This document shows positions 22,154 to 37,397 of a stretch of 64,000 bases of DNA, piece by piece (the first letter of the stretch is position 1; each line of letters begins with the position of its first letter). The notes under the pieces are model-generated. The model made no database searches. It worked only from the letters and a program-made list of their open reading frames with translations, and was not told the origin of the DNA. Made by a program: the position numbers and the translations under genes. This DNA is from an uncultured bacterium. Lineage in GTDB: Bacteria > Acidobacteriota > Blastocatellia > Pyrinomonadales > Pyrinomonadaceae. The DNA is taken from the NCBI GenBank assembly GCA_965653675.1, contig CBFHBA010000021.1, forward strand, positions 2,386 through 66,385, in the 5' to 3' direction.

Positions 22154-22253
22154 CTAACATGCCGAGTCGTTCACCGTAGAAACACTATGAAAATGGACGT
22201 AATAAGAAGAACTACTGCGAGTTTTTTCGGGTAAGTGCGGATTCTTGCCGGAG

Positions 22254-23885
22254 TTACTTCTTCGGCTGTGGCTCGTCTTTCCGGTGACACTCGGCGCACT
22301 GGAACATCGAGATGTCCCCGAGATTGATCGGGTGCTGAAATGGCTTGTTTGGTTTATGGCAGAAGTCGCACTTGCGGTCGGCGAGCGAGCCCAAGTCGAC
22401 CGGGTGAATGAACGGCCCGGTCTTTACAGACGCCTCGGGATTGGCGGAGTCGTAGATCATCGTGTGACAGATGTTGCAGTTGTTGCTGATGACTTTGCCG
22501 TCTTTGCTGACGTGATCGCCGTCGTGACAACGGAAACAGCCTGAGAAATAAAGATGGCCAATGTTGTTCGGGTGCGTCTGCCAATCTGTCTTCATCTCCG
22601 GAAAGAAATAAGTCTGAAAGATGCGCTGCACTTCGGCAATCGCGCCGTCCAGGGCCTGGCGTTTTTGGGAATAAACATCCGGATAGTTCTTGCTGTAGAA
22701 CTCAGTAAGCCCGGCCGCAATGTCCGCGACCGCTTGCGGCGTCGTGTCGTACGGCCGGCTCAACATTTCGACTGCCTTCTTCTTTAGATAAGGCAGCGAT
22801 GGATCCAATCTTCCCGCGACGAACGCGAGATCGACTGCAACATCCGGCGGTTGATAGACATGCGCAGGCCGGTTATGACAATCGACGCAGTCCATACGAC
22901 GCCTGCTTCCATTCGCGATCTGCTCCGCGGTTAGCGGCCGGTTGCGATCGTAATACTCTGTAACTTTGCCGCTGCGATCTTTGATCCGCACCCACGGAAT
23001 CACCTGGCGTCGATCATCAATCGAAATGTAAGTAATTTCGTTGGCGATGTTCATGTGCCAGTGAATGCCGGTCACGAGTCCCGTCTGTGGACTGCCGCCC
23101 CCTACGTTGATCAGCATGCGTCGCTGACGAAGCGTATTGTGTTCGTCATAGCCATAACGGTTGAAGACTTTGAGCTGCGCGCCGAAAAACTTTTCGGGCC
23201 AGTGACATTGTTCACAGGTTTCCTGCGCCGGCCGCAGATTGTGGACCGGCGAACCAATTGGCCGCGAATACTTTTTGAATGTAACGGAATAAAGTTGGTA
23301 CGCGCCGGAAAGTTTCGAGCGCACATACCAGCTCGCGCCCGGTCCGACGTGACAGCCCACGCAGCCAACCCGTGCATGCGCGCCGGCGAGATACGCAGTG
23401 TACTCGGGCTTCATCACCGTGTGACAGGTCTGCCCGCAAAAATTGACCGACTCAGTGTATTCGTAGCCGCGATAACTGCCGAACGCACTCGCGGAAACAA
23501 ACACGAAAGTTATGACTAAGAAAACGAAGAAGGCCTTGCGTGAACGCGGATCGTTCAAATCGAGTTTTGGATACGCTGGCTGCTCGCCCGGCGCGGCACG
23601 ATGGCGGCGGCGGCGCTCAAGCACCCTTCCGAGAATCGTGACGAACAATCCGAAGATCAGGATTGAAGGAAAGATGATGTAAGTGAGAATGCCGAGATAA
23701 GGGTTCTCGGCGTTGGAGGTGACTTCTATCAGAAAGAGCAGGACAACGCTGACAAAACTCGCGATAACGATCGCGCCGCCGACCAGGCTAACGTAATTGC
23801 GGAACAGGCTGGGTGACTTGGCCGCTGGTTCGGCGGGGCCTGCGTCGTCCGGGGCCTTCGTGATGTGCAGCTTTTCGTTGCTCAT
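22254..23885 (-). CDS. inner-membrane NapC/NirT-related multihaem cytochrome (ImcH-like)
   Basis: 543 aa with three N-terminal hydrophobic helices. Seven CXXCH motifs (CVGCH, CEQCH, CVDCH, CFRCH, CNICH, CDFCH, CAECH) plus one CX3CH (CGQTCH). Confidence 0.7.
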   Translation of the reverse strand: MSNEKLHITKAPDDAGPAEPAAKSPSLFRNYVSLVGGAIVIASFVSVVLLFLIEVTSNAENPYLGILTYIIFPSILIFGLFVTILGRVLERRRRHRAAPGEQPAYPKLDLNDPRSRKAFFVFLVITFVFVSASAFGSYRGYEYTESVNFCGQTCHTVMKPEYTAYLAGAHARVGCVGCHVGPGASWYVRSKLSGAYQLYSVTFKKYSRPIGSPVHNLRPAQETCEQCHWPEKFFGAQLKVFNRYGYDEHNTLRQRRMLINVGGGSPQTGLVTGIHWHMNIANEITYISIDDRRQVIPWVRIKDRSGKVTEYYDRNRPLTAEQIANGSRRRMDCVDCHNRPAHVYQPPDVAVDLAFVAGRLDPSLPYLKKKAVEMLSRPYDTTPQAVADIAAGLTEFYSKNYPDVYSQKRQALDGAIAEVQRIFQTYFFPEMKTDWQTHPNNIGHLYFSGCFRCHDGDHVSKDGKVISNNCNICHTMIYDSANPEASVKTGPFIHPVDLGSLADRKCDFCHKPNKPFQHPINLGDISMFQCAECHRKDEPQPKK

Positions 23886-25823
23886 CTACTCGGCTGTTTC
23901 GGGTGACGTTTCGTTGGGGGCGGGGCTTTCCGACGCTGTCAGGGTTTGTTTGTTCATCTGCTCGAATGCCAGCTCGTGCTCTTCACGATAAAGCTCTTCC
24001 GAAACTCGACCATCAATGAACGCGAAGTTTACCGGATAAACGTCGGGATCGAAAATCACATGATAGAAGTGCCAGACAATGATCGCGAGCGTCGCCAGCA
24101 CCGCTTCGTAAAAGTGAATCGCGAGCGCGATGTCGATCCACCAACGCGCGAGGAAACCGAATATGCCAATCTTGAACCAGATCATCAGGCCCGTTAGGCC
24201 CATGATGAAAGTGCCCCAAATGACGGCCCAATATTCAGCTTTTTCCGCATAACCGAATCGCGCGATCTTCGGTTTGATGCTCCGCAGACCGAGATAGTAA
24301 GCAAAGTTTTCCAAAAGGTCCTTGACGTCAGTGACACGTGGGAACATGTCTTTTACCCAGCGCCGGCCGTCTTTTGTGAGCGCGAGATATCCGATGTGAT
24401 AGACGCCGACGACAATCATCACAACCGCCGCCACGCGGTGAATGATACGGCGTAGATACTCATTTGATCCCAATAGCCACGCCAGCAATGAATCCGGATA
24501 CTGCAAAGCAAAGCCGCTCAGCACGAGCACGATAAAGCTGGTTAACAACAGCCAGTGTTGAAGTCTTTGATTGGCCGTGAGCCGCACAATTGTCCGGCGC
24601 TCTCGCCGCCTCGCGGCGACTTTAAGACGCCAGACAAGCACGTTGTGCAAAGCCATGCCGCCAATCGTCAAAAAGATCAGCGGCAGATAAATCCAGCGCA
24701 CGATGTGTATTCCGCGCGCCGACAAATCACGCGTCATCACGTTGGAAACGAGTTCAGAAGTGAGATGAACCTTTCCTTTCGTGAAGTTTCCGCTGGCGCC
24801 AATGTGACATTGTCCGCAGGTTTGTTGGAGGTTCTTCGCGTTAACCATTGAACGCGGGTCGGAAGAAGGCAGGATGTTGTGTACGCCGTGGCAACTCGCA
24901 CAATTCGCGACGACTTTTGATCCGAGCTGCGAGGCCAAGCCGTGATAGCTGTCTTTGTAACTCGCAACGCGGCCGCTGGCGACGCCGAACTCCTGGGTTA
25001 GAGTTACGCCTTCATGACACTTCGCACAGCTTTCAGTGGCGACGGCCGCTGACGCAAGATTTTTGTCGCCGTCGAACGGCTGCGTGATGTTGTGAATGCC
25101 ATGACAGTCAGTGCACACCGGCGCGCGCGAAACACCGCGCGCGACCGCCTGGCCATGCACACTCTGCATGAATTCTGTCGCTTCGGCACTGTGACACTTG
25201 CCGCACGTGTTGGGAATATTCACTTTTGCGATCGAGGATTGCGCGTTGGACGCGGGGAGAATTTCGTGCGCGCTGTGGCAATCAGTGCAGACAGCTGCAC
25301 TCACGTTGCCGCGCGCCATCGCTTTCGCATGCACGCTCTCGCGATACGAGAGGAATACTTGACTGCTGATTCCGCTGCCCTTCATCACCGATTGATCGCC
25401 GTGACAGCGTCCGCAGGTCGCAGCGATGTTTGCCCGATTGACGGGTGAAGCGGGATCATTCGCGGGCAGCATCGTTGTCATGTCGTGATTGCGTGCGTGG
25501 CAATCAAGACAACTTGCTGCCTTCGCCCCGCTCTGTAACGCTTGCGCGTGGAAACTGTGGCCATAACCGCTGTGCTGCGTCGTGTGGAATAACGAACCAG
25601 CGAGATATGGAAGTTGCTTTCCCGCGCCATGACATCCCTGACATTGAAGAGTGGGTGAAGGAATAGGAAACGCTTGCGCGTTGGGTCCGCCAATCACTGC
25701 GCCTTCGTTTGGCTGCACTGTTGTCGGCGACGAGGTTTGATTCGATTGAGCGGCGACCGAAAAAACAACAGGGAGTATCGACAAGCCGAAAAGAATGAGA
25801 ATTAGAGCGGCATGTCGTCGCAT
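23886..25823 (-). CDS. nonahaem c-type cytochrome fused to an FdnI/HydC-type dihaem cytochrome b membrane domain (CbcL-like)
   Basis: 645 aa with a signal peptide and 9 CXXCH motifs in the N-terminal ~370 aa. The C-terminal half has multiple TM helices with conserved His and an RLQHWLLLTSFIVLVLSGFAL-type helix. Confidence 0.8.
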   Translation of the reverse strand: MRRHAALILILFGLSILPVVFSVAAQSNQTSSPTTVQPNEGAVIGGPNAQAFPIPSPTLQCQGCHGAGKQLPYLAGSLFHTTQHSGYGHSFHAQALQSGAKAASCLDCHARNHDMTTMLPANDPASPVNRANIAATCGRCHGDQSVMKGSGISSQVFLSYRESVHAKAMARGNVSAAVCTDCHSAHEILPASNAQSSIAKVNIPNTCGKCHSAEATEFMQSVHGQAVARGVSRAPVCTDCHGIHNITQPFDGDKNLASAAVATESCAKCHEGVTLTQEFGVASGRVASYKDSYHGLASQLGSKVVANCASCHGVHNILPSSDPRSMVNAKNLQQTCGQCHIGASGNFTKGKVHLTSELVSNVMTRDLSARGIHIVRWIYLPLIFLTIGGMALHNVLVWRLKVAARRRERRTIVRLTANQRLQHWLLLTSFIVLVLSGFALQYPDSLLAWLLGSNEYLRRIIHRVAAVVMIVVGVYHIGYLALTKDGRRWVKDMFPRVTDVKDLLENFAYYLGLRSIKPKIARFGYAEKAEYWAVIWGTFIMGLTGLMIWFKIGIFGFLARWWIDIALAIHFYEAVLATLAIIVWHFYHVIFDPDVYPVNFAFIDGRVSEELYREEHELAFEQMNKQTLTASESPAPNETSPETAE

Positions 25824-25998
25824 GTCATCAGTCTTTGCAACGGGTTGAGTCCTGTCGAAAGCTTACCGTCAACGGCGCGCGCGCGCGGTGATTGCCATCA
25901 CACGCATTTGTCGATGAAGCATTGCGGGCGGGCAAAAAAAGCGCAGCCCTTTCGATCGCTCGAGAGAGCTACGCGAACGAACAACGTTTTTTTGTTCG

Positions 25999-26313
25999 TT
26001 ACCGGAGAGACTTGATATAGCCGACCAGAGCCTTCGCCTGATCCGGCGTGACGCCTCGTTCTTTGAAGGCCGGCATGTTGGGCGGCTTCTCCATCGTCTT
26101 GCCGTCGAGAACGGTTTGGATCAAGACATCATCAGCCTTGGTCTTGTCCAGCTTCTTTTCGGCAGTTGCGCCATGGCACATTTTGCACTTCGTGTTGTAG
26201 AGCGTTGCCGTATCGTCATCGGTCGCGCGTGCGGGTGTCGAAACGATCAGAAATGCGCCTGCAACAACCAGCGCTGCCACGACGAAAATCACTTTGAATA
26301 ACGGGCCCATCAT
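25999..26313 (-). CDS. monohaem class I c-type cytochrome
   Basis: 104 aa with a signal anchor, a single CKMCH and a distal Met candidate (PNMPAF). Confidence 0.8.
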   Translation of the reverse strand: MMGPLFKVIFVVAALVVAGAFLIVSTPARATDDDTATLYNTKCKMCHGATAEKKLDKTKADDVLIQTVLDGKTMEKPPNMPAFKERGVTPDQAKALVGYIKSLR

Positions 26314-26530
26314 TCATTGCCTCCAAAATTAACTAACATCTTCGCCTTGCGGCTGCGGTTTGAGCTTGGCAACGGACGTGCCGGGCTGATTTGTGCGGAC
26401 TTTCCGGGGAAGGATGGGGATTATGGGAACTTTTCCACGGAGAGTCGCGGGAAAGTTCTCGGTGCCATTAAACGTCGTCCGCTATACCGGTGTGAAAATA
26501 GCCCGGGCTTCAGCGCTTGGATCAGAGCGC

Positions 26531-26706
26531 AAAAGAGATCTCAAAGTCCGCGAAACGGACGACAGATACGAACCGGTTGCGGCCGCAAGCGGGTTAAGGA
26601 TTCGACTACACCTCACAGCGACTCTTTATTCCGCTCACTATCGTTCGCGGTTCCGTAAATTTCGTCACCGCTTCGCGGACGATAGGACCCGCCAGATAGA
26701 CTTTTG
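26531..26706 (-). repeat. dispersed ~170-nt element, copy 2, ending (minus strand) in a terminator-like hairpin
   Basis: Homologous to 16225-16388. The hairpin stem is at 26546-26560 (GTCCGCGAAACGGAC on the plus strand). It starts 9 nt after the stop of the tetrahaem cytochrome gene. Confidence 0.75.
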
Positions 26707-26714
26707 ACAAAGCC

Positions 26715-27293
26715 TCACGCCGCCGCTTTCTTATGGCAAGCTACGCATTTCTTTGAAGTGGGCGGCGCCGGATCGAGTGTCGGCCGCGCCTTCACCACGT
26801 CGTCATGGCAACCACCACAGTTGCGGTGAAATGCCTGCTGATTCGTCATGATGGTTTCCTCTGTAGCACCTTCAAACTTCAGACGTGGAATCTCAGGCAG
26901 CAACTTCGGCTTCTGATCGGCGCGCGCGTGACAATCAGTGCAGATGACAACAGTCACGCTCGGATCTTTCGCAAGCAGATCAGCCGTTAGAGTAGTCGTG
27001 CGATCGGCCGGCCAAACAGTCTTGTGTGGCGGATGCTTCACCGCTTCCGCCGCAGGCTGCGCCGTGTGATGACACTCGACGCATTCGAGTTTCTTCGTGC
27101 CGTCGGCACTGCGATTCTCGGTGATGTGCTTCATGTGATTGAAACTCACAGGACCGAGCTTCGCCTCTTTTGCGAGCACGATTGTTTCAGGCGGCGCCTT
27201 TCCACCCTGCGCCGATGCCGGCGTCGGACTTAAGCGCATCGAAACCAGCGCCAGCGAAAAAACTAGAAATGCAAAGATCGCAATTACTTTCAT
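26715..27293 (-). CDS. tetrahaem cytochrome c3-family protein
   Basis: The start is taken at ATG 27293 (MKVIAIFAFLVFSLALVS...), preceded by GAGAGG. Motifs: FNHMKH, then CVECH, CTDCH, CGGCH and CVACH. Confidence 0.8.
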   Translation of the reverse strand: MKVIAIFAFLVFSLALVSMRLSPTPASAQGGKAPPETIVLAKEAKLGPVSFNHMKHITENRSADGTKKLECVECHHTAQPAAEAVKHPPHKTVWPADRTTTLTADLLAKDPSVTVVICTDCHARADQKPKLLPEIPRLKFEGATEETIMTNQQAFHRNCGGCHDDVVKARPTLDPAPPTSKKCVACHKKAAA

Positions 27294-27334
27294 AGTAACC
27301 TCTCTGGTTCTATGGAGTGCGGCGCACTCCAAAT

Positions 27335-28366
27335 TCAAAAGCGCCACGCTGCTCCGGTGTGGCACCGTTTACAACTCGTAAAGTCGTCACCGCCAAATGC
27401 GCGTTTGCCGTTGTGACAAGTCATGCAACTTTGACCACGGCCGGTCGCGTGATGATTGAGCGGCTCAGGCGTCGTGACTTGTCGTCGCTGCGCCTGACCG
27501 GGACGGACGTCGTGACATTCGCTGCACGTCACCTTCTCGTGCTTCGCATGGCTGAATCCCACGCGAAAGGCCGGCATCATCATGGGCGTACGCGCGTAGC
27601 CACCGAGTTGATGACAGGTTCCGCACGAAGAAATGTCGCGCCCACCGGATTGTGCGCGTGGCGTGTGACAACGAAAGCACGTCGTGTGCGCATTGAAATC
27701 AGCGGGAATCGTCATCGCGACGCCGCTGCGCGCAGGTTTGTGACAAGTCGCGCAGCTTACACTTCCCATGCTGACATGACGAGCGTGATCGAACTTCATC
27801 CTAAAACTCATCAATCGCGACGGAAATGGCTTAGTGGCTCCCGACTTCGGATCGGTGTGACAGATGGTGCAAATCGGACTATCCGGCGACGAGAACTGCT
27901 GCGCGTGACATCCTGCGCACGGAAGATGCTGTGACGCACCAGGACGTTTCGGCACCGACGCGTTCGAATCGCGACGATGGCACAGCAAGCAAGGCAGGCG
28001 CGAATGATTGCGGCTACTGTGCTGAAACTTCGAGTAGTCGAGTCCTTCGGGAAACTGCATTTGTGTCTGTGGCGACTGCTCTCCAAAACCTGTCGAGGCG
28101 TGAGAATTAGATGCGCGGAACACACCAAAACCGAGCACGAGAATGACGAACAGCGCCGCAGGCGCGAAATATTTATAGAATCGTAAGCCCGAATTGATTT
28201 GTTGCGGCTCTGCCGTCTGATGCCCGGTGGTGGCTCCGCCCCACCGGTCGACGTGCGTAACACGTTCTTGGGCTGCGCCCATTATTCGGGCGAAGCCCGG
28301 GTATCGAATTGATAAGCCTGATCGGAAGGTCAAAGACCTTCCGCATATCAGGCGGCCCAGCCGCAT
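27335..28366 (-). CDS. nonahaem cytochrome built from three c7-type trihaem modules
   Basis: 9 CXXCH motifs arranged as three modules, each of the form F.H..(.)H followed by 3 x CXXCH (FQHSSRNH..., FDHARH..., FSHAKH...). The start at 28366 is chosen to follow the upstream stop at 28384. One TM/signal anchor. Confidence 0.75.
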   Translation of the reverse strand: MRLGRLICGRSLTFRSGLSIRYPGFARIMGAAQERVTHVDRWGGATTGHQTAEPQQINSGLRFYKYFAPAALFVILVLGFGVFRASNSHASTGFGEQSPQTQMQFPEGLDYSKFQHSSRNHSRLPCLLCHRRDSNASVPKRPGASQHLPCAGCHAQQFSSPDSPICTICHTDPKSGATKPFPSRLMSFRMKFDHARHVSMGSVSCATCHKPARSGVAMTIPADFNAHTTCFRCHTPRAQSGGRDISSCGTCHQLGGYARTPMMMPAFRVGFSHAKHEKVTCSECHDVRPGQAQRRQVTTPEPLNHHATGRGQSCMTCHNGKRAFGGDDFTSCKRCHTGAAWRF

Positions 28367-28383
28367 CCATATGAATCTGATTC

Positions 28384-29610
28384 TCAAAGCGTCTTCTTCG
28401 GTTTCGGTGGCGGAATCGCCTGGGGATGGCTTTCGGGAATTGGTCCTTTTCCGAATGTCACATGACATTTTGTGCAGGTAAAATTCGGATCTTTCTTCTT
28501 CGCGTCGATTTCAAAATTCAGGATGCCGCCATCGTCGGTCGTAGTAGTGATGTGACAACCATCCGCGCCACCACAGGACTTGATCGGCACCTTCATTGTT
28601 TTGAAATCGACGGTGCTGAAAGTCGTAGTGTCAACCTTGTGACAATTCAGACAGTTCAAATCGGGGTGCTCGCCGCCTTCGTGACGAAATCCGCCCGCCG
28701 AAATGCGTCGACTCCAACGCGCAAGCATGGTTGCGTCAGCGCCCATGCTCGCGACCAGCGCCGCGTCAAAATCAGTCTGGGTCGGTTTTGGCGGTTGCAG
28801 CTTATGACAGACTTCGCAGTTCTTTGGCTCGGGCGCGATCCCGGAATCAGCGCTGTGACAAGTGAAGCAGATCGTGTGGCTGTTCGGAATCGTCTTGAAT
28901 GTTCCCTTCTTCAGCCAAAAGTTGTCGCCGAGGTTCTTCGGCGGTTTAGTCACATACTCTTCGCTTGATTGTCCCTGCGGCTGATACGTCTGATGACAAA
29001 CGGGGCAGCTCGCTGGGATCGCCGACTTCTTTTGCTGAAACGAAACGGAAACAAAGCGCAATGGTGCGTTCAACCAGCTCACGACGTCGATATGTTTGTC
29101 GTGCGGAAAGCCCACGCCGAATTCGGAAACAAACTCGCGACGCTTCAGTTTTGGATCAGTAAGATCGCCGAGGCTCGGAAACAGCCAACGCGCCGTATCT
29201 TTTGGCGTAACTGCGATATGACAGTTTGAGCAGATCGCCGGCGCCGGCTGTTCTCGCGCAAAAAATTGCGTGCGATGGCATTCAAGACAACTTGAGTGCT
29301 CAGGAAAATCCGAGACATCGGCGAAAGCCGCGGCGCCTTTGCGCACGAGGTTCCAATTTTTCGAAGGCACTTTGTGACATGAATTGCACGCGAGCTTTTG
29401 ACCCACCACATGCGTCGTATGCGAGAACGTTGTGTAGTCGTTCTTGGGCGTAGGCGGCTTTGGTTTTTGCTTGCGAGTCCGCGAGCGACGCTGGGCGCTG
29501 GACACAATGCCGACTGACGCCTCGAGAAAGCAGAGCGCCGTAACACAAACCAGAATTATGAGTGCAACCCGCCCAATGATCGTCAAAATGTGAGACAGTC
29601 TCCGCCTCAT
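28384..29610 (-). CDS. nonahaem cytochrome built from three c7-type trihaem modules (one CX4CH site)
   Basis: 8 CXXCH motifs plus CGGADGCH. The modules are headed by FSHTTH, FPHDKH and FRHEGGEH. N-terminal signal anchor. Confidence 0.75.
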   Translation of the reverse strand: MRRRLSHILTIIGRVALIILVCVTALCFLEASVGIVSSAQRRSRTRKQKPKPPTPKNDYTTFSHTTHVVGQKLACNSCHKVPSKNWNLVRKGAAAFADVSDFPEHSSCLECHRTQFFAREQPAPAICSNCHIAVTPKDTARWLFPSLGDLTDPKLKRREFVSEFGVGFPHDKHIDVVSWLNAPLRFVSVSFQQKKSAIPASCPVCHQTYQPQGQSSEEYVTKPPKNLGDNFWLKKGTFKTIPNSHTICFTCHSADSGIAPEPKNCEVCHKLQPPKPTQTDFDAALVASMGADATMLARWSRRISAGGFRHEGGEHPDLNCLNCHKVDTTTFSTVDFKTMKVPIKSCGGADGCHITTTTDDGGILNFEIDAKKKDPNFTCTKCHVTFGKGPIPESHPQAIPPPKPKKTL

Positions 29611-29615
29611 CCGAG

Positions 29616-31007
29616 TTAACCAACGTCGGTCTGTTGTTGCCGGGCTTCGATTTGCCTGATCTTTAAATAAACGAGCGTTGCCAAAAATAAAATGAACAGG
29701 AGTGAAACTGCCAGTCCCTTTCGCCGGAAACTAAGTTCGGCGAGCGCGCCGACGCCAGCCTGGTAACCCTTGTTCGCCGCATCCATCCCAGGTTCGATGA
29801 CTTTATTGACCTCAGCCGTTGACGAAGAATGAATCAAGACTCGCGCATGCGTCAGCGCATCGGTCGCGCCCTTCAAATCGAATTTCGGCTTGCTAACTTC
29901 CATGCCTTTGCGTTCGGCCAGGTTTAAAATCGCCGTCGACTTGTCGATGCTGGCGATCAGCTGGTCGATGCGCGAACGCATTGCCCCCGCGGCCACAAAT
30001 CCTTTGTCACCCTGCGTGTGGCAGTTGATGCAAAGCGCGCCTTGCTGTGTGCCAATCAGCGCGTCGCCGGGTTTCGGAATGGCGTGATTGCCATGACAAG
30101 TGATGCACTCGCCGAGTTGCTTGTCGTCGAACGCTTTTTTGTGCGGACTTGTCTGGAACAACTCAGCCTGTCGCGCGTGACATTGGCCGCAAACATTGGC
30201 GACCGAAGCAATCCCGGGCGGCGTCGCGCCATGATTGCCATGACAATCGTTACAAGTCGGCGCCGACAAATCCTGTTTGTCGTAGAGCGCTTTCGCGTGA
30301 ACGCTCAGCTTGTAATTGTCGAACTGGTTCGTCGGAATCCCGAACGGCTTCATGTAGTCGGCGCTCGCGTGACACTTCGCGCACGTGTTCGCAACGTTGC
30401 TCGGATAAACAGATGAAAGTGGATCGCTAGGCGCGCGAATGCCATGGACGCTGTGGCAACTTATGCAGGTTGCGACGCGTGTCTCGCCTTTCTCCTTCAA
30501 CAAACGGCCGTGGACGCTGGTGTAATACTCGCGTTCCTGGTCAACGCGCAGCGAAGGGTTGAACCGCTTCATCAGACTGGCGTCGCTGTGACACTTGCCA
30601 CAATAGGCCGGGATGTCGAGCGTTTTTGGTTTTCCCAGATAACCTTTGCGAACGTCGTGCGCAGCTTCCGCGGTGGTCGCGTTCGGATCACCACCATGGC
30701 AGTCGTTGCACATTAACCCGCGCGCTTTATGAATGTCGTTGTCGAACAACTTTGCGGGGGCGCTGATGCGTGGATCGGCTAGCTTGGCGTGACACTCGAT
30801 GCAAGAGTTTTTCTGTTGGGCTACGCCAAGCGTAAAGACGGTCAGAACTGCAATAACAACTCCAGCGACAGTCAGTCCTCTGTGTCTCTGTGCGATCTCG
30901 GTGTCTCTGTGGTGAGCATCCTCGCGCGACATATCACCACAGAGACACGGAGATCCACCGAGGCACAGAGACTTGATCCCGTACCGTTTCAAGATTCCTT
31001 CGCTCAT
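29616..31007 (-). CDS. nonahaem c-type cytochrome with a C-terminal transmembrane anchor (candidate cytochrome c subunit of the adjacent Rieske/cyt b complex)
   Basis: 9 CXXCH motifs and a C-terminal helix LAVSLLFILFLATLVYLKI. Codons 12-44 are encoded by a palindromic repeat, and ATG 30932 is an alternative start. Confidence 0.75.
   Translation of the reverse strand: MSEGILKRYGIKSLCLGGSPCLCGDMSREDAHHRDTEIAQRHRGLTVAGVVIAVLTVFTLGVAQQKNSCIECHAKLADPRISAPAKLFDNDIHKARGLMCNDCHGGDPNATTAEAAHDVRKGYLGKPKTLDIPAYCGKCHSDASLMKRFNPSLRVDQEREYYTSVHGRLLKEKGETRVATCISCHSVHGIRAPSDPLSSVYPSNVANTCAKCHASADYMKPFGIPTNQFDNYKLSVHAKALYDKQDLSAPTCNDCHGNHGATPPGIASVANVCGQCHARQAELFQTSPHKKAFDDKQLGECITCHGNHAIPKPGDALIGTQQGALCINCHTQGDKGFVAAGAMRSRIDQLIASIDKSTAILNLAERKGMEVSKPKFDLKGATDALTHARVLIHSSSTAEVNKVIEPGMDAANKGYQAGVGALAELSFRRKGLAVSLLFILFLATLVYLKIRQIEARQQQTDVG
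30877..30972. repeat. palindromic element (CACAGAGAC family) lying in frame inside the 5' end of the cytochrome gene
   Basis: A perfect 15-bp inner stem (gtgtctctgtggtga at 30901-30915 versus tcaccacagagacac at 30934-30948) plus imperfect outer arms. Length 96 nt, which is 32 codons. Confidence 0.8.
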
Positions 31008-31012
31008 ACTTT

Positions 31013-31055
31013 ATCCACAGCGCCGTCATCGCTTCGCTCTGCCGGCGCACTCCCA
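31013..31055 (+). repeat. solo half-copy of the 8126-8165 repeat arm
   Basis: atccacagcgccgtcatcgcttcgctctgccggcgcactccca aligns with atccaaagcgccgtcgccgcttcgctctgccggcgcactccag. Confidence 0.75.
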
Positions 31056-31056
31056 A

Positions 31057-32121
31057 TCACTTCGCGACGTATCCAACGATCGTCATCACGGCGATGTAAA
31101 CGACTGCAACTATGCCCACGATATTAAAGATCAAGTGCTTGCGGCGATTCGCGGGATCGCGATCAATAAACGGCACAACAAACAAAAGCGCGGCGATGAT
31201 GTTGAATGCCATGATCCCCAGCACTTCGCCGTCCATTCCGAGAATTTTTGCCGGCAACCACTTCAATGTCTGAAACATAAAAAGGAAGTACCACTCCGGC
31301 TTGATGCCGGCGGGCGCGGGCGCAAACGGATCAGCTTTCTCTCCCAGTTCCCACGGGAAAATTGCCGCGAGCGCTGCCAATACGCCGATAGCCAGAATCC
31401 AGCCGATCAAATCCCGCATGATGAAGTTCGGAAAAAACTTCATCCGGCGGTAGTTGTGTTCGTATTTCTTCGGCACGTGCATGCCGTGCAGTTGCACGAG
31501 CGCGACGTGCACGCCGAGAAACACGGTCGCAGTCGCAGGCAGCACGGCGACGTGAAAACCGAAGAACCGCGTCAGGGTCGCGCCGGTCACGTCGTCGCCG
31601 CCACGCAGAAAACGCAGCACCGGATGTCCCACGATGGGCACGACTCCGGCAATTTCAGTCCCGACCTTCGTCGCAAAAAACGCAAGCTTGTTCCAGGGCA
31701 AAAGGTACCCGCTGAACCCAAAACAGATCACGATGAAGAGCAGGAATACGCCACTGACCCAGGTAATCTCGCGCGGTTTGTGATAAGCGCGCAGAAAAAA
31801 GACGCTGAACATGTGAACGAACAGCGCCGCGATCATCAGGTTGGCCGACCAACTGTGAATCGAGCGAATCAACCAGCCGAACTTAACCTCGGTGATGATG
31901 AACTGAACGCTTTCGAAAGCGTTCTCAGCACTCGGGCGGTAGTAAAGCAGCAGGAGAATTCCAGTGACAACTTGCACGACGAACAGAAACAAGGTCATGC
32001 CGCCGAAGTAGTACCAGATCGAATGGCGCTGGAGGGGGACTTCCTTTTTGTCGGCGAGCTTTGTCAGCGTGCTAATCGACAGACGCTCGTCGAGCCAATT
32101 GGTCAGGGGCTGGATTCTCAT
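31057..32121 (-). CDS. cytochrome b (bc-complex, fused N- and C-terminal domains)
   Basis: The start is taken at ATG 32121 ([14 protein letters not shown]...). [37 protein letters not shown] and multiple TM helices. The upstream 31 codons of the ORF are repeat-encoded. Confidence 0.85.
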
Positions 32122-32141
32122 CGCTGAAAAGCAACCGGCTT

Positions 32142-32261
32142 TTCTGTAGCCCAGGCGTTTACCCTGGGAAAGCGTTGGAAGACTTCTGCAAAGCCTCCTT
32201 AGGGAGGCTTCCAATCATTTGATAAATCCGTGACCCAGCCGTAAACGGCTGGGCTACAGAA
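32142..32261. repeat. palindromic MITE-like element between the Rieske and cytochrome b genes
   Basis: ttctgtagcccaggcgtttaccctggg (32142-32168) versus cccagccgtaaacggctgggctacagaa (32234-32261) is 24/27 complementary. There is an inner hairpin aagcctcc/ggaggctt. Confidence 0.8.
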
Positions 32262-32266
32262 ATCCA

Positions 32267-32743
32267 TTAACTGCGCGTTACCACCACATCGTCGCCGCGC
32301 GTGTTGACCTTGAACTCTTCCAAAGGCCTTGGCGGAGGGCCGCCGATGTTTTTTCCGCTCAAGTTGTATTGCCCGTTGTGACAGGCGCACCAAATCTGTT
32401 TCGTGTCTTCTTTGTACTGGACAATGCATTCCAGGTGTGTGCACACCGCCGAAAATGCTTTGAACTCGCCGGCCGCCGTATGGACCAGGATGCCGGGCTT
32501 GTTCCCGAATTTGAAGATTTTTCCTGAGTTCGGCGGCACCTCGCTTAGTTTCGCCGCCACGACTGAATTCTCCGCCGACTCGACAATTTGCGGCGGCGTC
32601 ATGAACTTGAGAATGGGATAGATGATCGCGCCCAAAGTCGCGACGGCGCTGGTGCCAAGCAGCCAATCGAGAAAGCTTCTGCGCGCTGGTGAGTGAGGCG
32701 CGCTGAGATCAGTTTTGGAGTTACGCCGAATGTCAGAGTTCAT
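32267..32743 (-). CDS. Rieske [2Fe-2S] protein
   Basis: 158 aa with a twin-arginine-like [10 protein letters not shown], plus CTHLEC and CACHNGQY cluster boxes. Confidence 0.85.
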
Positions 32744-32806
32744 TCGGACAATCCTCCCGATCAGAGATTGAACAACATTTACAGCGATTAAAAACTACTT
32801 ACTTAT

Positions 32807-32846
32807 GCGAACTCCAGCTTTGGCGATAACCTTAGCTGGAGTTCGC
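32807..32846 (-). terminator. perfect 13-bp stem hairpin after the beta-barrel gene (weak terminator or processing site)
   Basis: gcgaactccagct (32807-32819) pairs with agctggagttcgc (32834-32846) around a 14-nt loop. On the minus strand a TTTTT run begins 12 nt after the stem. Confidence 0.4.
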
Positions 32847-32872
32847 GTTTGATTCAACTAGAATGTCCGCGA

Positions 32873-35245
32873 CTATTCCTTGCGCCCAATGTAAACGCGC
32901 AGCGACATGTATGGCAGATGCGTGTGATAGTTCTGCGCGCGCGGAGCGTTCAGTGGAAACGTTCTCAGAAATCCATCCTCGTTGTAGTTGAAGTATTGAT
33001 AGCCCAGGTTCCAATCCAGATGACGATTCAATCGGATTGCGATTCTGCCTTCCGGCGATTGGAAACTCATCGGATAAGAAGTGATCAAGGTGCCGCCTTC
33101 GTTAGCCGGATTCTTGAGCACGCCATTAACAATTATGCCGCCCGGAATCGGAGTTCCTCCCGCTGGATCTGACAACCGATCGCCTTGGCCATTGTCTAGA
33201 TTGACGCGATACGAACCATAGAAGGACACGCGCCAATTTGGCCGCCACACGACGTCGCCGTAGAAGAAGTTGTTCCTCTGGAAGTACAACGCATGGCCGA
33301 AGTGGTGAAACACCGCCGCGGGTGCCGATCCCGTTGGCGGAATTACTTGATACACATAATCGATCGTCGCATCGCTGTTGACCCAGTTGTAGTTATAGCC
33401 AAAGCTAAGCGAGAGGTTATCTTTCACAACCCAATCGAGAGACGACTGGAAAATACGCGTCTTCAAATTAACTGCAAAATCCGAAAGCGACTCGCCGGCA
33501 ATCTCGGATGGGTTTGAGTTGTCGCGGATGATCATTCCCAGGTTGAGATTTACTCTCCGATTTGGGACCCATCTGCTTTTCGCGCGAAGGTTCGTGTAGT
33601 CGTAGTTGCCGATGCGCGTGAAGACGTTATCAGCCGTCCCGTGTTCAGCGTCGAAATAAACAGTCCAATTCTTTGTCGGCCGCATCCGAAAACCACCGAG
33701 GATCGCATGCGTATGGTTGTCTTCAGTTTCAAATTCCGGCGTTTCCAGTGTCGGAGCGTTGGAGTTCAGATGGTAACCCGAGAGCGTCTGCTCTTCGTGT
33801 CGGTGCCCGTAACGGTAGCCAAAATGGATGGAATAGTTATGGTTGAACTGGTAATCACCCTCAACTGTGTTTTGGTATTTACGGTAACTCGTAGTCTTGA
33901 ACTCTTGCAGGAAACTGAAGCTGCGCGTGTCCACTAAGCCCGCGGTAGTCCGCACTTGGAAGAAGTCGTTGAACGTTGCAAATCCGTCGATCGTGAAGTC
34001 TTCTACGCGGAAGGTATTCGAAATCCGCAGCTTGTCAGTTGCCAATATCGTCAACCCAACGTCACCTTGCGTATTTGGGCGCGACACCGACGACGGAATG
34101 TTATAGGCGCCCAGCAGCAACGTGTTGGGGGGGCCCGGCTGGCCGCTAATACGGCTATTGAAGTTGACTGCCGTTTCGTTTTCCAGAAAGACGGAGTTTG
34201 CAGTCGCCTTGCTGTAGATAAACCGTCCTGTGATATCGAACCGTTTCGCCAGCAACGTGTGCGCGCTAAGTCGCGTAAAGTCTACGCGACCGCGAGTGGG
34301 CTCTTGGCGGTTGAACGAGGTGAACCGCGCGACCGCAGACGAATTCGTTAGGTTATTCGGATTGATGTAAGCGGGGACGGTTGCGATCGCGTTGTCATCT
34401 TTGGACCAACGGATGCCGTGCAGGATCGTCCAATCGACTTTTCCGATTCTTCCTTCCGCGCCGAATCGCCAGTCGTTCGCCCGTGTGCGTGAATCAACCA
34501 GGGCCTGAAATTCGTTACCGCCCTGGTGATAGGTCGTGAAAAACGGACCGCTGTAATGTTCCGGCGAATAGCCGATGTTGAAACGGATCCACTCGTTCTT
34601 TGGCAGAAGCGTTAGATCAAAGTCGCCGAACTCGGTGCGCGTGTTGTAGCCATGCAGTCCAGTTATGGAGCTCGGCGGTACAGGAAAGTAATTTGTGCCC
34701 CCGGGCGTCCCAAAGACCCAATTGGGATTCACGATGTTGTTCAGAAAACGATAGTACTTTGCGCGTCGATAGTTCCCTTCGAACTTATACCACTCAGGTT
34801 TCTCTGCGCTGATCCGCATGCTGCTTGTGGGATCGGCGCCCCAGCCAGTAGCAGTCACGAGCAAGGTATCAAACAGACCGCCCTTACCTTCCTTTGCCCG
34901 CATCAGAAAACTGCTGTCGAACAAGCGCGGTCCGGCTTTGTAGCCCAAGTCGCTTCGGTATTTGCGCTCATCCCCATACACGCCGAGGCCGCGATACCCG
35001 ACTTCGAAGCTGGATGTCACGATGTAATCGCCTGCCTCATCGCCGGTCGTGGTCGACGTCGGAATCGTGTCTGTCTTTTTCGACGTTGCCTTTTTCGACG
35101 TTGCGCTCGTGTTCGACGTTGTGTTTTTGTTTTTTGACTGGTCATCAGTCGAACTCGGTTGCGCCGCTGCGACGCCGGCAAGTAACAGGAGGCCAAGAAC
35201 CACTACGGGAACCATCCGCAACCGCTTTATCGTGTTGCTATTCAT
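32873..35245 (-). CDS. large outer-membrane beta-barrel protein (MtrB/PioB-like by size, position and composition)
   Basis: The start is taken at ATG 35245 (MNSNTIKRLRMVPVVVLGLLLLAGVAAAQ signal peptide). About 790 aa, with a Ser/Thr/Lys-rich linker followed by Gly/Tyr/Asn-rich alternating beta-strand-like sequence. It lies directly downstream of the decahaem gene. Confidence 0.6.
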   Translation of the reverse strand: MNSNTIKRLRMVPVVVLGLLLLAGVAAAQPSSTDDQSKNKNTTSNTSATSKKATSKKTDTIPTSTTTGDEAGDYIVTSSFEVGYRGLGVYGDERKYRSDLGYKAGPRLFDSSFLMRAKEGKGGLFDTLLVTATGWGADPTSSMRISAEKPEWYKFEGNYRRAKYYRFLNNIVNPNWVFGTPGGTNYFPVPPSSITGLHGYNTRTEFGDFDLTLLPKNEWIRFNIGYSPEHYSGPFFTTYHQGGNEFQALVDSRTRANDWRFGAEGRIGKVDWTILHGIRWSKDDNAIATVPAYINPNNLTNSSAVARFTSFNRQEPTRGRVDFTRLSAHTLLAKRFDITGRFIYSKATANSVFLENETAVNFNSRISGQPGPPNTLLLGAYNIPSSVSRPNTQGDVGLTILATDKLRISNTFRVEDFTIDGFATFNDFFQVRTTAGLVDTRSFSFLQEFKTTSYRKYQNTVEGDYQFNHNYSIHFGYRYGHRHEEQTLSGYHLNSNAPTLETPEFETEDNHTHAILGGFRMRPTKNWTVYFDAEHGTADNVFTRIGNYDYTNLRAKSRWVPNRRVNLNLGMIIRDNSNPSEIAGESLSDFAVNLKTRIFQSSLDWVVKDNLSLSFGYNYNWVNSDATIDYVYQVIPPTGSAPAAVFHHFGHALYFQRNNFFYGDVVWRPNWRVSFYGSYRVNLDNGQGDRLSDPAGGTPIPGGIIVNGVLKNPANEGGTLITSYPMSFQSPEGRIAIRLNRHLDWNLGYQYFNYNEDGFLRTFPLNAPRAQNYHTHLPYMSLRVYIGRKE

Positions 35246-35338
35246 GACTTTTATCCTTGACTCAATGAACTCGATTAATGGCGAGCCGGGGCGCGCCAAA
35301 CACGGCGGCGGGCATGGCCCGCCGCCAGAGAATCCGCA

Positions 35339-36349
35339 TTAGCGGAAGAAGACCGGACTCGTGCGCGAACCATGAATCTTGATGTGACAAGCGGTGCAGT
35401 TCGCGTACTGCGCGTTTTGGTTGTGCGACGGTCCAGAGGGTTCAATCGCGCCGACATCGTGCGACAAACTATGGCAGGTCAGACAAAGCTGATTGACCGA
35501 GCTGTAGCGCAGCAACCGCGGATTCGCGGAACCGTGCGGTGTGTGACAAGCGGTGCAGCCTTCAGTCTTCACCGGCGCGTGTTCGTAGGTGAACGGCCCC
35601 TGCTTGTCAGCGTGACACTTGATGCAAGCTGCATCAGCGCCGGTCGCCAACCGCGTTTGTTTCAGCTCAAAGCCGCCATGCGGGTTGTGACAATCGCTGC
35701 AACGCATCGTGCCTTCCAGCACTTTGTGATGGAACGGCATATTGAATTGCGGCTTCACCTCGGTGTGACAGCTCTCGCAAAGCTGCGGGTCGTTCGCCCT
35801 TAACATCCGAGTCGTCGCGAAACCTGGCTTCTCCGCGTTGACGCTCGTCACTTGATAATTCGAACTGGCCAGGTTTCGACCAGCGACACCTGAGTGCGGC
35901 GAGTGACAATCCGTGCAGCCTATGTCGTTGCGCCAGTGTTCGCCACGACGGAAGTTATTGCGCTCTTCTTTGCCGGCGTGGCATGTCAGACAAATCTCAG
36001 AAGCTTCCTTCGGAGTCTTGTGCTTGAACGAAATGATCTTGGTGACGTCACCACCACCTTCGACGTGCGCCTGGCCCGGGCCGTGACACGATTCACATCC
36101 CGTCACTTTGTTTTTCCAATCGGCAATCTTTGCCAGTTCCGCGTGCGCAGTGTGCGAGTAGGCTTTGAATTGATCTTCGTGACAGTCTTTGCAGACTTCC
36201 GTGCCCACGTAGTCCGCAGGCAAAGGTTTGTCGTCCGTCACTGCGGAACGCGCGGTCGCTTGCGAGCTGCGCGCTCCGACTAGCCACACGACAACTGCCA
36301 ACGCTGCTGCCAGGAAGAGCGTTGCGTTGATTGTTTTCCTGAGTCTCAC
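35339..36349 (-). CDS. periplasmic decahaem c-type cytochrome (MtrA/DmsE/PioA/MtoA family-like)
   Basis: 336 aa with a signal peptide and 10 CXXCH motifs with MtrA-like spacing and C..CH.PHG(S/G) contexts. Confidence 0.8.
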   Translation of the reverse strand: MRLRKTINATLFLAAALAVVVWLVGARSSQATARSAVTDDKPLPADYVGTEVCKDCHEDQFKAYSHTAHAELAKIADWKNKVTGCESCHGPGQAHVEGGGDVTKIISFKHKTPKEASEICLTCHAGKEERNNFRRGEHWRNDIGCTDCHSPHSGVAGRNLASSNYQVTSVNAEKPGFATTRMLRANDPQLCESCHTEVKPQFNMPFHHKVLEGTMRCSDCHNPHGGFELKQTRLATGADAACIKCHADKQGPFTYEHAPVKTEGCTACHTPHGSANPRLLRYSSVNQLCLTCHSLSHDVGAIEPSGPSHNQNAQYANCTACHIKIHGSRTSPVFFR

Positions 36350-36474
36350 TTGGAGCCTCCGTTCTCTAATTGAAAGTGCCTGCCGACTGCAGACGAATTA
36401 CGAAGTAAAAAGACCTGAACAACCGCTTGCATGCTACGTGGACACACTCTGGCGGTCTGTGATGACCGTCACCG

Positions 36475-37212
36475 TCAATCACACATCACGGGTGACATTT
36501 GTGCTAAAGAGGCGAGCGCGTCGCTGTCGCGAATCCACATCAGATCCCGTTTGACATGGACGATCCCGTCGCGTTTCAGCGCGCTGAAAAGACGTGTCAC
36601 AGTTTCGCGTGACGCGCCGATTATTTGCGCAATCTCTTCCTGCGTCAGCCATATGCGAACGCGTATTCCTTCGTGGGTGACCTCCCCAAAATCACGACCC
36701 CAACGCGCAATCAGATGTGCCAGCTTTTCCAACGCCGATTCCGACAGCGCCAGCATGCGTGTGTGATCGATCAATTCACTGAACTGCCGGCTAAAGACCT
36801 CGAGCAGTTCCAGGCTGTAGCCATTTTGCCGAGAGATCAGATTCAGGAGGTCCTGACGCGAAATGAAATCGACACGCCCACCTTCCAACATCTCGGCGGT
36901 CGCCTCAAACGGCCGGCCCGTCAGACCGGCATAGAGCCCGAGAATGTCGCCGCCTCTCGCAATGCGGACGATTATCTTTTTGCCGTCGGCTGAAGAGATC
37001 GAGATCTTCGCGCGGCCTGATGACAGAACATAAACGCCGAGTGCGTTGTTGCCTTCGCGAAACACCACCGCGCTTCGCGGATAGATGCGACTGCGGGCTA
37101 CGCGATCAATGCCCGGCACAGCCCGCAAAGGTGAATTGAAGGGTAAGATTCGGGAAGCCGCAATTCGATTTTCACTCTCAGTCACTGCGGCTTGGCGCAC
37201 GACGTTCATCAT
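36475..37212 (-). CDS. Crp/Fnr family transcriptional regulator
   Basis: 245 aa with a cNMP-binding-like beta-roll (VFREGNNALGVYVLSSGRAKIS...) and a C-terminal HTH (TQEEIAQIIGASRETVTRLFSALKRDGIV). Confidence 0.85.
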   Translation of the reverse strand: MMNVVRQAAVTESENRIAASRILPFNSPLRAVPGIDRVARSRIYPRSAVVFREGNNALGVYVLSSGRAKISISSADGKKIIVRIARGGDILGLYAGLTGRPFEATAEMLEGGRVDFISRQDLLNLISRQNGYSLELLEVFSRQFSELIDHTRMLALSESALEKLAHLIARWGRDFGEVTHEGIRVRIWLTQEEIAQIIGASRETVTRLFSALKRDGIVHVKRDLMWIRDSDALASLAQMSPVMCD

Positions 37213-37339
37213 TCATCTCTCTCCACAGCAAGGGTCGTAAATCAAGAATTCTGGCTTAAAAAGAGCGGAATCCTTGCTGGCGCAAGAGCAAGATATGTGC
37301 CCGCGTCGTCTATCTAACTTAGGCGAATAATCACGCTCT

Positions 37340-37363: not shown

Positions 37364-37397
37364 TCCCAATTGTGGGGAACTTTCCGCAAACCTGAAC

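Follow-up and report, generated by a model that had tools for sequence, protein, structure and literature searches.

A modular multihaem cytochrome cluster in Pyrinomonadaceae that would connect quinol oxidation to an MtrAB-like outer-membrane conduit

Porin–cytochrome conduits of the MtoAB, PioAB and MtrAB type, all from Proteobacteria, pair a decahaem cytochrome of the MtrA/DmsE family with a large outer-membrane barrel encoded beside it, and in Rhodoferax, Dechloromonas and Gallionella homologues of the inner-membrane cytochrome CbcL (MtoC/MtrH) adjoin mtoAB or mtrAB (PMC6295460). Here we describe a cluster of eleven genes within a 64,000-nucleotide stretch of contig CBFHBA010000021.1 (the whole stretch is called the window below), in which a conduit of this kind stands together with Rieske and cytochrome b (bc) genes, periplasmic multihaem cytochromes and CbcL-like and ImcH-like membrane cytochromes. 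Its host is a soil acidobacterium of the family Pyrinomonadaceae (Blastocatellia, Acidobacteriota). Our preferred reading is that the cluster serves outward electron flow, i.e., the respiration of extracellular acceptors under low oxygen, to which we give a probability of roughly 0.6.

Like the three proteobacterial systems, the window places an MtrA/DmsE-type decahaem gene beside a large barrel gene (about 26 strands in an AlphaFold2 model), and the best structural match of this barrel is MtrB of the Shewanella MtrAB complex (6R2Q). The cluster resembles MtoAB and PioAB in having no MtrC-type surface lipoprotein, and MtoAB–MtoC in including a CbcL-family inner-membrane cytochrome. It differs from all three in that its barrel has no detectable membership in PF11854, in its acidobacterial host, and in the addition of an ImcH-type protein, a Rieske/cytochrome b/nonahaem set and three c7/c3-type periplasmic multihaem cytochromes. 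Because a 2018 survey found no mtrAB beside any imcH (PMC6295460), the linkage of ImcH to a conduit is new relative to that survey; the Geobacter genes for ImcH (GSU3259) and CbcL (GSU0274), too, are not clustered with an MtrAB-type conduit. Rieske and cytochrome b genes do have a precedent in the Geobacter cluster extHIJKLMNOPQS, which encodes a porin-like protein (ExtI), cytochromes (ExtKL, ExtM, ExtN and ExtS), a Rieske protein (ExtO) and a cytochrome b (ExtP) (PMC5877670). PCC4 (He et al. 2017) was considered as a further precedent for a bc subunit and set aside, its inner-membrane protein being an FRD-like dihaem b and not a Rieske/cytochrome b pair.

Acidobacterial porin–multihaem conduits have likewise been inferred to serve extracellular electron transfer (EET), namely MtrCAB group 5 of Bryobacterales (PMC8805035) and EET1/EET2 from peat (bioRxiv 10.64898/2026.05.27.727921). 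The hosts of both belong to other classes (Terriglobia/Bryobacterales) than that of the window; the group 5 clusters have MtrC and no inner-membrane quinol oxidoreductase encoded nearby, and the searched text of the EET1/EET2 preprint makes no mention of Rieske, ImcH or CbcL. The closest description is a June 2026 study of metagenome-assembled genomes (MAGs) from karst, whose 'group 2' clusters have a small decahaem beside a 25-36-strand porin, with ImcH/NapC-like genes in 6 of 8 clusters and petB/petC in several, these last including clusters in SAR255 (Pyrinomonadaceae) and in MAGs of Vicinamibacteria, Acidoferrales and Gemmatimonadota (PMC13264449). The SAR255 cluster probably belongs to the same cluster family as the one in the window. 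The core layout has thus already been noticed, briefly and without analysis, and the suggestion of the initial annotation that the composition was undescribed was overstated in view of PMC6295460, PMC5877670 and PMC13264449. The clusters are only depicted in the karst study, which leaves CbcL and the nonahaem bc subunit unmentioned and gives no account of long versus short forms, of the bc genes as a cassette, of the operator or of a mechanism. Newly added here are the dichotomy of long and short forms, the behaviour of the bc genes as a cassette, the nonahaem as the likely third bc subunit, a conserved CX5CH site, the class-wide distribution, and a conserved box that resembles an operator and is linked to the neighbouring regulator.

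Composition of the cluster and its predicted conduit

Eleven co-oriented minus-strand open reading frames (ORFs) occupy 22254-36349, and a gene of the Crp/Fnr family lies ahead of them at 36475-37212; every ORF listed in the initial annotation was recovered at its coordinates. The features are given below in the order in which they would be transcribed, with lengths in amino acids (aa) and nucleotides (nt) and transmembrane segments abbreviated TM.

36475..37212, minus strand: Crp/Fnr-family transcription regulator, 245 aa (Pfam cNMP_binding, HTH_Crp_2, Crp)
36459..36472, no strand assigned: palindrome GTGATGACCGTCAC of the form GTGA-N6-TCAC, a candidate operator, about 110 nt upstream of the decahaem start
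35339..36349, minus strand: decahaem cytochrome c of the MtrA/DmsE family, periplasmic/outer-membrane, 336 aa, 10 CXXCH (TIGR03508, 6r2q_A)
32873..35245, minus strand: outer-membrane beta-barrel of about 26 strands, MtrB-like by predicted fold, 790 aa (AlphaFold2 model, Foldseek)
32267..32743, minus strand: Rieske [2Fe-2S] subunit, 158 aa (PF00355)
31057..32121 (ORF to 32214), minus strand: cytochrome b, a fused b6-like domain and subunit IV, 354 aa from the ATG (PF00033, PF00032)
29616..31007, minus strand: membrane-anchored nonahaem cytochrome c, candidate bc c-subunit, 463 aa (9 CXXCH, terminal TM-like segments)
28384..29610, minus strand: periplasmic c7/c3-type multihaem cytochrome with 8 CXXCH and a CX5CH, 408 aa (Pfam Cytochrome_C7, CIII)
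27335..28282 (ORF to 28468), minus strand: periplasmic poly-c7-type nonahaem cytochrome, about 315 aa (Cytochrome_C7, TIGR04257)
26715..27296, minus strand: periplasmic tetrahaem cytochrome c3/c7, about 193 aa (Pfam Cytochrome_C7, CIII; 4 CXXCH)
25999..26313, minus strand: periplasmic monohaem class-I cytochrome c, 104 aa (PF13442 Cytochrome_CBB3, E 2e-9)
25888..25901, no strand assigned: second GTGA-N6-TCAC palindrome, in the 175-nt gap upstream of the CbcL-like gene
23886..25823, minus strand: CbcL/MtoC/MtrH-type inner-membrane fusion of a nonahaem domain and a cytochrome b, 645 aa (PF01292, 1kqf_C, 9 CXXCH)
22254..23885, minus strand: ImcH-type inner-membrane multihaem cytochrome, 543 aa (PF03264; 3 TM helices, CX3CH, 7 CXXCH)

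In cluster order the cytochromes c carry 10 (decahaem), 9 (nonahaem after cytochrome b), 8 (next multihaem), 9 (second nonahaem), 4 (tetrahaem), 1 (monohaem), 9 (CbcL-like) and 7 (ImcH-like) CXXCH motifs, which sum to exactly 57, the number first estimated by eye. This density is not due to chance, since the cluster has 57 motifs in 3007 aa, whereas the long ORF segments of the rest of the window have 3 in 21216 aa, and since the per-protein numbers are conserved in orthologues from dozens of genomes. Two details of the first count needed amendment. The additional CX3CH is present in the ImcH-like protein, but the supposed CX4CH is a CX5CH (CGGADGCH); and of three cytochromes described as having nine haems, two do have 9 CXXCH each, whereas the middle one combines 8 with this CX5CH.

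Gene calls in relatives point to internal ATG starts for cytochrome b (32121), the second nonahaem (28282) and the tetrahaem (27296), and the barrel counts 790 aa from its first ATG. With the ORFs as first read, and the barrel taken from its internal ATG, the intergenic gaps span 0-129 nt and there are two apparent overlaps, which vanish with the internal starts. The gaps are thus mostly short, as had been claimed, except around the monohaem gene, where they reach 401 nt before it and 175 nt after it.

The decahaem protein passes the TIGR03508 (DmsE/MtrA) model with 238.6 bits (cutoff 192.2) and aligns haem motif by haem motif to the solved MtrA (6r2q_A, E 3.4e-30, residues 48-329), which bears out its description as MtrA-like. 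It has an N-terminal hydrophobic signal, and its 10 CXXCH are kept in 80 of 81 orthologues. The PDB name table labels 6r2q_A 'Cystathionine beta-synthase', a labelling error judging from the alignment and from the Foldseek description ('Structure of the Mtr complex').

The barrel gene adjoins the decahaem gene across a 93-nt gap in the window and follows it in nearly all of 82 loci. Its AlphaFold2 model is all-beta and plug-less, with about 26-27 long strands (pLDDT 69, pTM 0.57), and in a Foldseek search of the PDB its best match was MtrB (6r2q_B, TM-scores 0.51/0.61), whereas the other targets listed had TM-scores of at most about 0.42 and were mostly 22-strand TonB-dependent receptors. That the barrel is itself such a receptor was rejected, given the missing plug domain of the model and the TM-scores of only 0.30-0.42. 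Sequence comparison was less productive: the barrel matched nothing in Pfam (including PF11854, MtrB_PioB) or NCBIfam, profiles built from 34 relatives and from 50 more distant relatives found nothing among PDB sequences, and PF11854 gave weak matches to 4 of the 34 close and 1 of the 50 distant relatives (best E 1e-6). Because these searches were negative or marginal we rejected membership in PF11854 and call the barrel MtrB-like by predicted fold, size and position only. The claim of an MtrAB-like barrel of about 790 aa therefore stands for those three properties but not for the MtrB/PioB sequence family, to which there is no significant similarity.

No protein of the cluster reaches TIGR03507, the model for MtrC/OmcA-type surface decahaems, and no conserved lipobox was found in any of its multihaem proteins. 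For the latter reason we liken the conduit to the two-component MtoAB/PioAB systems and not to MtrCAB.

Inner-membrane modules and periplasmic cytochromes

ImcH proteins are recognised by three N-terminal TM helices, a CX3CH, six (range 5-9) CXXCH motifs and a NapC/NirT-like region (PMC6295460). The last protein of the cluster, first annotated as a 7(+1)-haem NapC/NirT-like and ImcH-like cytochrome, agrees with this description: hydropathy places TM helices at residues 35-53, 66-84 and 118-136, a CX3CH (CGQTCH) follows at residue 150, and PF03264 is matched with 34.5 bits (cutoff 24.1). Its motif spacing is 25, 49, 109, 117, 20, 36, 24, as compared with 24, 49, 106, 117, 20, 38 in GSU3259 and 24, 49, 109, 117, 20, 37, 24 in the acidobacterial protein OLE50779.1 (PMC6295460 and its Table S3). 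It therefore shares with Geobacter ImcH the three TM helices, a CX3CH near the membrane domain and an almost equal spacing of the next six CXXCH, and differs in one extra C-terminal CXXCH. The CX3CH is invariant in 35 orthologues, in which conservation of every motif is complete or at least 97%. The matches listed in a homology search with this protein (at least 120) were all close relatives from Blastocatellia that bear the name 'NapC/NirT family cytochrome c'.

The gene next to it encodes the fusion of a 9-haem domain and a cytochrome b that had been called CbcL-like, and both parts are present: nine CXXCH, and a cytochrome b domain matched by PF01292 (Ni_hydr_CYTB; 55.2 bits, cutoff 30.1) and by FdnI (1kqf_C, E 3.7e-5), with 5-6 TM segments and invariant H393, H423, H462, H476, H570, H585 and H616. 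A nonahaem part joined to an FdnI/HydC-type cytochrome b is the architecture of CbcL, MtoC and MtrH (PMC6295460 Table S2). Compared with Geobacter CbcL (GSU0274), which has the same nine motifs and type of cytochrome b domain, the spacing of the last five motifs is similar (30, 29, 42, 28 versus 29, 28, 43, 28), whereas that of the first four differs.

The Rieske and cytochrome b genes were likewise correctly named. The Rieske protein (PF00355, E 5e-13) has a PetC-type TM anchor and a CTHLEC...CACH motif, of which C101, H103, C106, C119, C121 and H122 are invariant in 38 sequences. Cytochrome b matches PF00033 (E 7e-52), PF00032 and a solved cytochrome b6 (E 5e-57), and has in 30 of 30 sequences the PEWY motif and histidine pairs at i+14 and i+15, the latter spacing being one that we take to be b6-like. 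As first read the two genes are 52 nt apart; counted from the likely cytochrome b start, the distance is about 145 nt. In place of a canonical c1, f or dihaem c subunit, the third gene encodes a nonahaem protein with 9 CXXCH and TM-like segments at its N and C termini, related to the DmsE family (TIGR03508, E 3e-16). This gene is present, absent or relocated together with those for Rieske and cytochrome b, and its product is likely the third (c) subunit of the complex; its departure from the canonical subunit makes it a variant and does not exclude it from the Rieske/cytochrome b complexes. Multihaem third subunits of such complexes are known in other lineages.

The resemblance of this cytochrome b to ExtP, the second-best NCBIfam match at 214 bits, and the match of the decahaem to a DmsE-family model raise the question of a soluble or periplasmic substrate, in which case the barrel would import, or the cytochromes reduce, an oxyanion (selenite or tellurite) or a sulfoxide, in the manner of ext or DmsEF. 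The ext cluster, with its porin-like protein, multihaem cytochromes and Rieske/cytochrome b genes, indeed affects selenite and tellurite reduction (PMC5877670). The ExtP score is nevertheless below the cutoff of 290, and ExtM reaches 24 bits against a cutoff of 800. Further, the cluster has no gene for a rhodanese, a selenocysteine-containing cytochrome or a DmsAB-like molybdoenzyme, and its barrel is large and MtrB-sized, not a 45-kDa porin of the ExtI type; it has instead a DmsE-family decahaem and CbcL- and ImcH-type proteins that set it apart from ext. We therefore regard a soluble substrate as very improbable.

Between the predicted inner-membrane modules and the conduit would lie the smaller cytochromes, which had been described as poly-c7 proteins, a c3-type 4-haem and a monohaem c, and which are matched by Cytochrome_C7, CIII and PF13442. 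The irregular CX5CH of the 8(+1)-haem protein (residue 346, window positions 28552-28575) is kept in 59 of 62 orthologues. The second nonahaem matches Cytochrome_C7 (E 5e-20) and TIGR04257 nanowire_3heme (48.3 bits, cutoff 40), with all nine motifs in 52 of 55 orthologues; the tetrahaem has its 4 CXXCH in 46 of 46. The monohaem protein is found in long and short types of the cluster (see below) alike. Among the loci L004-L082, about six have an ORF with 16-17 CXXCH where the 8(+1)-haem protein matches, and two have one with 15 where the 9-haem protein matches, which suggests that the 8(+1)- and 9-haem genes are fused there and that their products may act as one relay.

Modular forms and a candidate operator across Blastocatellia

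A scan of species representatives (one genome per species) returned 169 stretches with relatives of the barrel, the best 80 of which were examined; all 80 are Blastocatellia MAGs, labelled Blastocatellia, Pyrinomonadaceae or 'Chloracidobacterium sp.'. The barrel has more than 1300 close homologues, the named ones from Pyrinomonadaceae/Blastocatellia MAGs, and its family comprises 1293 clusters at 50% identity (E up to 1e-3). Look-ups of the exact barrel sequence of the window, with either of its starts, gave no match; in the nearest genome locus, L004 from a Pyrinomonadaceae MAG, amino-acid identity is 85-96% across the cluster.

Gene order was compared in the 55 informative loci, defined as those in which the DNA downstream of the barrel extends for at least 9 kb. 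Seventeen have the exact 11-gene order of the window, which agrees with the expectation that the order would be conserved in relatives, and in about five more it is near-identical or cut by the end of the locus. Another 28 have a short form consisting of decahaem, barrel, 8(+1)-haem, 9-haem, (4-haem), monohaem and ImcH, without Rieske, cytochrome b and nonahaem and without CbcL. The remaining variants are few: one locus has CbcL without the bc genes (L066), one has the Rieske–cytochrome b–nonahaem block relocated after ImcH (L076), and in three the cluster stops after the second nonahaem (L001, L002 and L011). Since the short-form loci keep the same core in the absence of the bc genes and CbcL, the conduit (decahaem and barrel), the periplasmic cytochrome relay and ImcH appear to form a constant core, Rieske, cytochrome b and nonahaem an optional three-gene cassette, and CbcL another optional module, nearly always found along with the cassette. 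Purifying selection acts on the cofactor sites, and the gene arrangement is kept.

The optional nature of the cassette is also what would be expected if the bc genes, and perhaps CbcL, merely happened to lie here and encoded an ordinary quinol:cytochrome c oxidoreductase that serves oxidases or other reductases and not the conduit. The 28 loci with a conduit and no bc genes, the movement of the three genes as a block in L076 and the conventional character of cytochrome b and Rieske in every ligand all fit such a juxtaposition. Yet about 22 species-level loci keep the cassette in the same orientation, with short gaps, between the barrel and the periplasmic cytochromes, and it co-occurs almost strictly with the CbcL-like gene; its c-subunit is a DmsE-related nonahaem, not a mono- or dihaem c; and no locus has the palindrome discussed below upstream of the Rieske, cytochrome b or nonahaem gene. 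On balance we consider juxtaposition quite unlikely.

More distant barrels occur in other settings, one with 39% identity in a decahaem-barrel-multihaem-CbcL cluster and one with 27% identity in a Crp ... multihaem-decahaem-barrel cluster. Some genomes have two conduit clusters, a tandem pair in L011 and copies on different contigs in DATFHH01 (L047, L078) and DASWUM01 (L053, L060), which indicates duplication and diversification of the conduit system. In L052, L055, L061, L069, L078 and L082 there is a weak Rieske-like match (29-40% identity) on the opposite strand, about 7 kb upstream of the barrel; near these short-type conduits it may represent a different Rieske protein. In the closest metagenomic relatives, L001/L002, the region past the second nonahaem (19976-22340) holds two GCV_H genes and genes for an Fe-S protein and an NrfD-type membrane protein fused to a c7 domain, which may constitute another quinone-interacting module. 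The gene calls of L003, a distant relative, include a 54-aa ORF (12518-12682) that separates the barrel gene from the Rieske gene; the window has no counterpart, the spacing between these genes being only 129 nt.

The CRP-type palindrome GTGA-N6-TCAC occurs seven times in the window against 1.3 expected, a number reached in 0 of 100 shuffles. Two of these boxes, at 36459-36472 and 25888-25901, are intergenic in the cluster and conserved in position across loci. In 41 of 79 loci the decahaem gene is preceded within 250 nt by an exact box, the background being 0.065 per kb. Other genes of the related loci seldom have one upstream: 4 of 39 Crp genes, 1 of 62 genes for the 8(+1)-haem protein and 4 of 25 CbcL genes do (the last at 69-89 nt in L003, L004, L008 and L045), and none of the barrel, Rieske, cytochrome b, nonahaem, 9-haem, 4-haem, monohaem and ImcH genes does. 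L001, L003 and many other loci have a Crp-family homologue in the corresponding place, and with one mismatch allowed the box is found in 32 of the 41 loci with a Crp gene as compared with 9 of the 39 without it. Because the box is conserved upstream of the decahaem gene, rare or absent elsewhere, and tracks the Crp gene, there is sequence-level support for one main regulated promoter before the decahaem gene and possibly a second before CbcL. An FNR-type box (TTGAT-N4-ATCAA) was ruled out, as its 36 matches against 29 expected are at chance level. Two of the remaining GTGA-N6-TCAC boxes lie inside coding sequence, at 23202-23215 (ImcH-like gene) and 36083-36096 (decahaem gene); three more, at 11543-11556, 15739-15752 and 48498-48511, lie outside the cluster and could mark other members of the regulon.

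Transcription of the cluster as a single unit is plausible, and the 401- and 175-nt gaps together with the second box allow for more than one transcript. The 401-nt non-coding gap between the tetrahaem and monohaem genes (26314-26714), for which L003 has a gap of about 300 nt in the same place, contains no convincing small ORF and no Rfam match, the whole of 21000-38000 giving zero Rfam matches; it could hold an internal promoter or processing site. Scans for sigma-70 promoters and intrinsic terminators performed at chance level and were uninformative.

Direction of electron flow and neighbouring genes

The cluster encodes parts for every step that leads from quinol to the outer face of the outer membrane. 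How these parts are physically wired, co-transcribed and signalled to, and in which direction they carry electrons, we infer as follows. Under low oxygen, the Crp-family regulator would bind the GTGA-N6-TCAC box upstream of the decahaem gene and turn the cluster on. Quinol, presumably menaquinol, would then be oxidised by the ImcH-like, the CbcL-like or the Rieske/cytochrome b module, depending on the potential of the acceptor, and the electrons would pass through the 8(+1)-, 9-, 4- and 1-haem periplasmic proteins to the decahaem. The latter is presumably threaded through the MtrB-like barrel as in a two-component conduit of the MtoAB/PioAB style, from which electrons would leave to Fe(III) or Mn(IV) minerals, humic matter or similar acceptors.

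Four considerations favour the outward direction. ImcH, the nearly universal inner-membrane partner in these loci, has so far been implicated in quinol oxidation only (PMC6295460); the regulator is of the Crp/Fnr family; the neighbourhood holds genes for pyruvate:ferredoxin oxidoreductase (PFOR), 2-hydroxyacyl-CoA dehydratase with its activator ATPase, and FeoB; and most of the MAGs bearing a porin–cytochrome conduit (PCC) in the karst study, which includes one of a Pyrinomonadaceae, have no carbon-fixation pathway (PMC13264449).

The same parts could in principle run inwards, with electrons from Fe(II), Mn(II) or reduced minerals entering the periplasmic cytochromes through the conduit and continuing downhill via the monohaem c to a terminal oxidase, or uphill or near-isopotentially via the Rieske/cytochrome b and/or the CbcL/MtoC-like module to quinone. 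In favour of this, Fe(II) oxidisers likewise have two-component conduits (MtoAB, PioAB) without an MtrC-like lipoprotein, MtoC of Gallionella and Dechloromonas is a member of the CbcL family, the cytochrome c domain of the monohaem protein is of the cbb3-subunit-III type, and bc complexes take part in the uphill branch of Fe(II) oxidation in Acidithiobacillus. What speaks against inward flow is, besides the role of ImcH, which is present in nearly all variants, the anaerobic heterotrophy to which the neighbouring genes point and the scarcity of carbon fixation among the PCC-bearing MAGs; the window itself contains no carbon-fixation or oxidase genes. We accordingly judge inward flow unlikely.

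Several points nonetheless weigh against outward respiration of extracellular acceptors as set out above. The barrel is not an MtrB/PioB by sequence and its model is of only moderate confidence (pLDDT 69, pTM 0.57), no surface cytochrome was identified among multihaem proteins that have no conserved lipobox, and the ImcH and CbcL assignments are founded on architecture, domain matches and motif spacing. Fe(II) oxidisers are the best-known carriers of conduits lacking MtrC (MtoAB, PioAB) and have CbcL homologues (MtoC) as well (PMC6295460), and Rieske/cytochrome b complexes need a fairly high-potential acceptor and are also found in uphill Fe(II)-oxidation chains. The gaps of 401 and 175 nt flank the monohaem gene, and a second box precedes the CbcL-like gene. 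Finally, the support for all members of the cluster is computational, and the described isolates of Blastocatellia are known as aerobes. A literature search for iron or electrode physiology in Pyrinomonadaceae/Blastocatellia found nothing relevant.

A more specific and tentative proposal, which we hold to be possible but still doubtful, is that the Rieske/b6-type complex with its nonahaem acts as a dedicated, energy-conserving Q-cycle quinol:extracellular-acceptor oxidoreductase, one of a three-tier, potential-matched set with the ImcH-like and CbcL-like proteins that would share one conduit and one Crp-type operator. If it were true, facultative respiration of minerals or humus would extend to many Blastocatellia, a group abundant in soil. 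In Geobacter research, the way in which quinol oxidation is matched to the potential of the acceptor is a current question, and the long and short variants of the cluster offer a natural comparison for the contribution of the bc complex to EET, e.g., for yield on high-potential acceptors, whereas the conserved GTGA-N6-TCAC box provides a concrete handle for regulatory work. Blastocatellia, including Pyrinomonadaceae, are common in soils, biocrusts and wastewater and are generally treated as aerobic heterotrophs. The breadth of the cluster (169 stretches) suggests that EET may be a widespread latent capacity of the class, with a bearing on iron, manganese and humus redox cycling in oxic-anoxic microsites of soil.

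The surroundings of the cluster contain further genes. Upstream of the regulator lie those for a pyridoxal phosphate (PLP)-dependent enzyme (37484-38596, plus strand), the ferrous iron uptake protein FeoB (38707-40767, minus strand), PFOR (1189 aa, 42478-46047, plus strand) and a DHO_dh-like protein (46150-47175, plus strand); a PALP-FeoAB-PFOR set recurs in L001/L002, and PFOR with DHO_dh in L003. At 6858-10386 (plus strand) are two HGD-D subunits of 2-hydroxyacyl-CoA dehydratase and a BcrAD/BadFG activator ATPase. Such oxygen-sensitive radical enzymes are typical of the anaerobic fermentation of amino acids and would not be expected in a class that is regarded as aerobic. At 16420-19039 (minus strand), some 3 kb downstream from the cluster, are genes for a histidine kinase with a PAS domain and for an NtrC-type, sigma-54-dependent response regulator, which could provide a second regulatory input. 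Directly downstream of the ImcH-like gene, at 20156-22153 (minus strand), lies a gene for a 665-aa glutamate-cysteine-ligase-2-like protein with two CBS domains.

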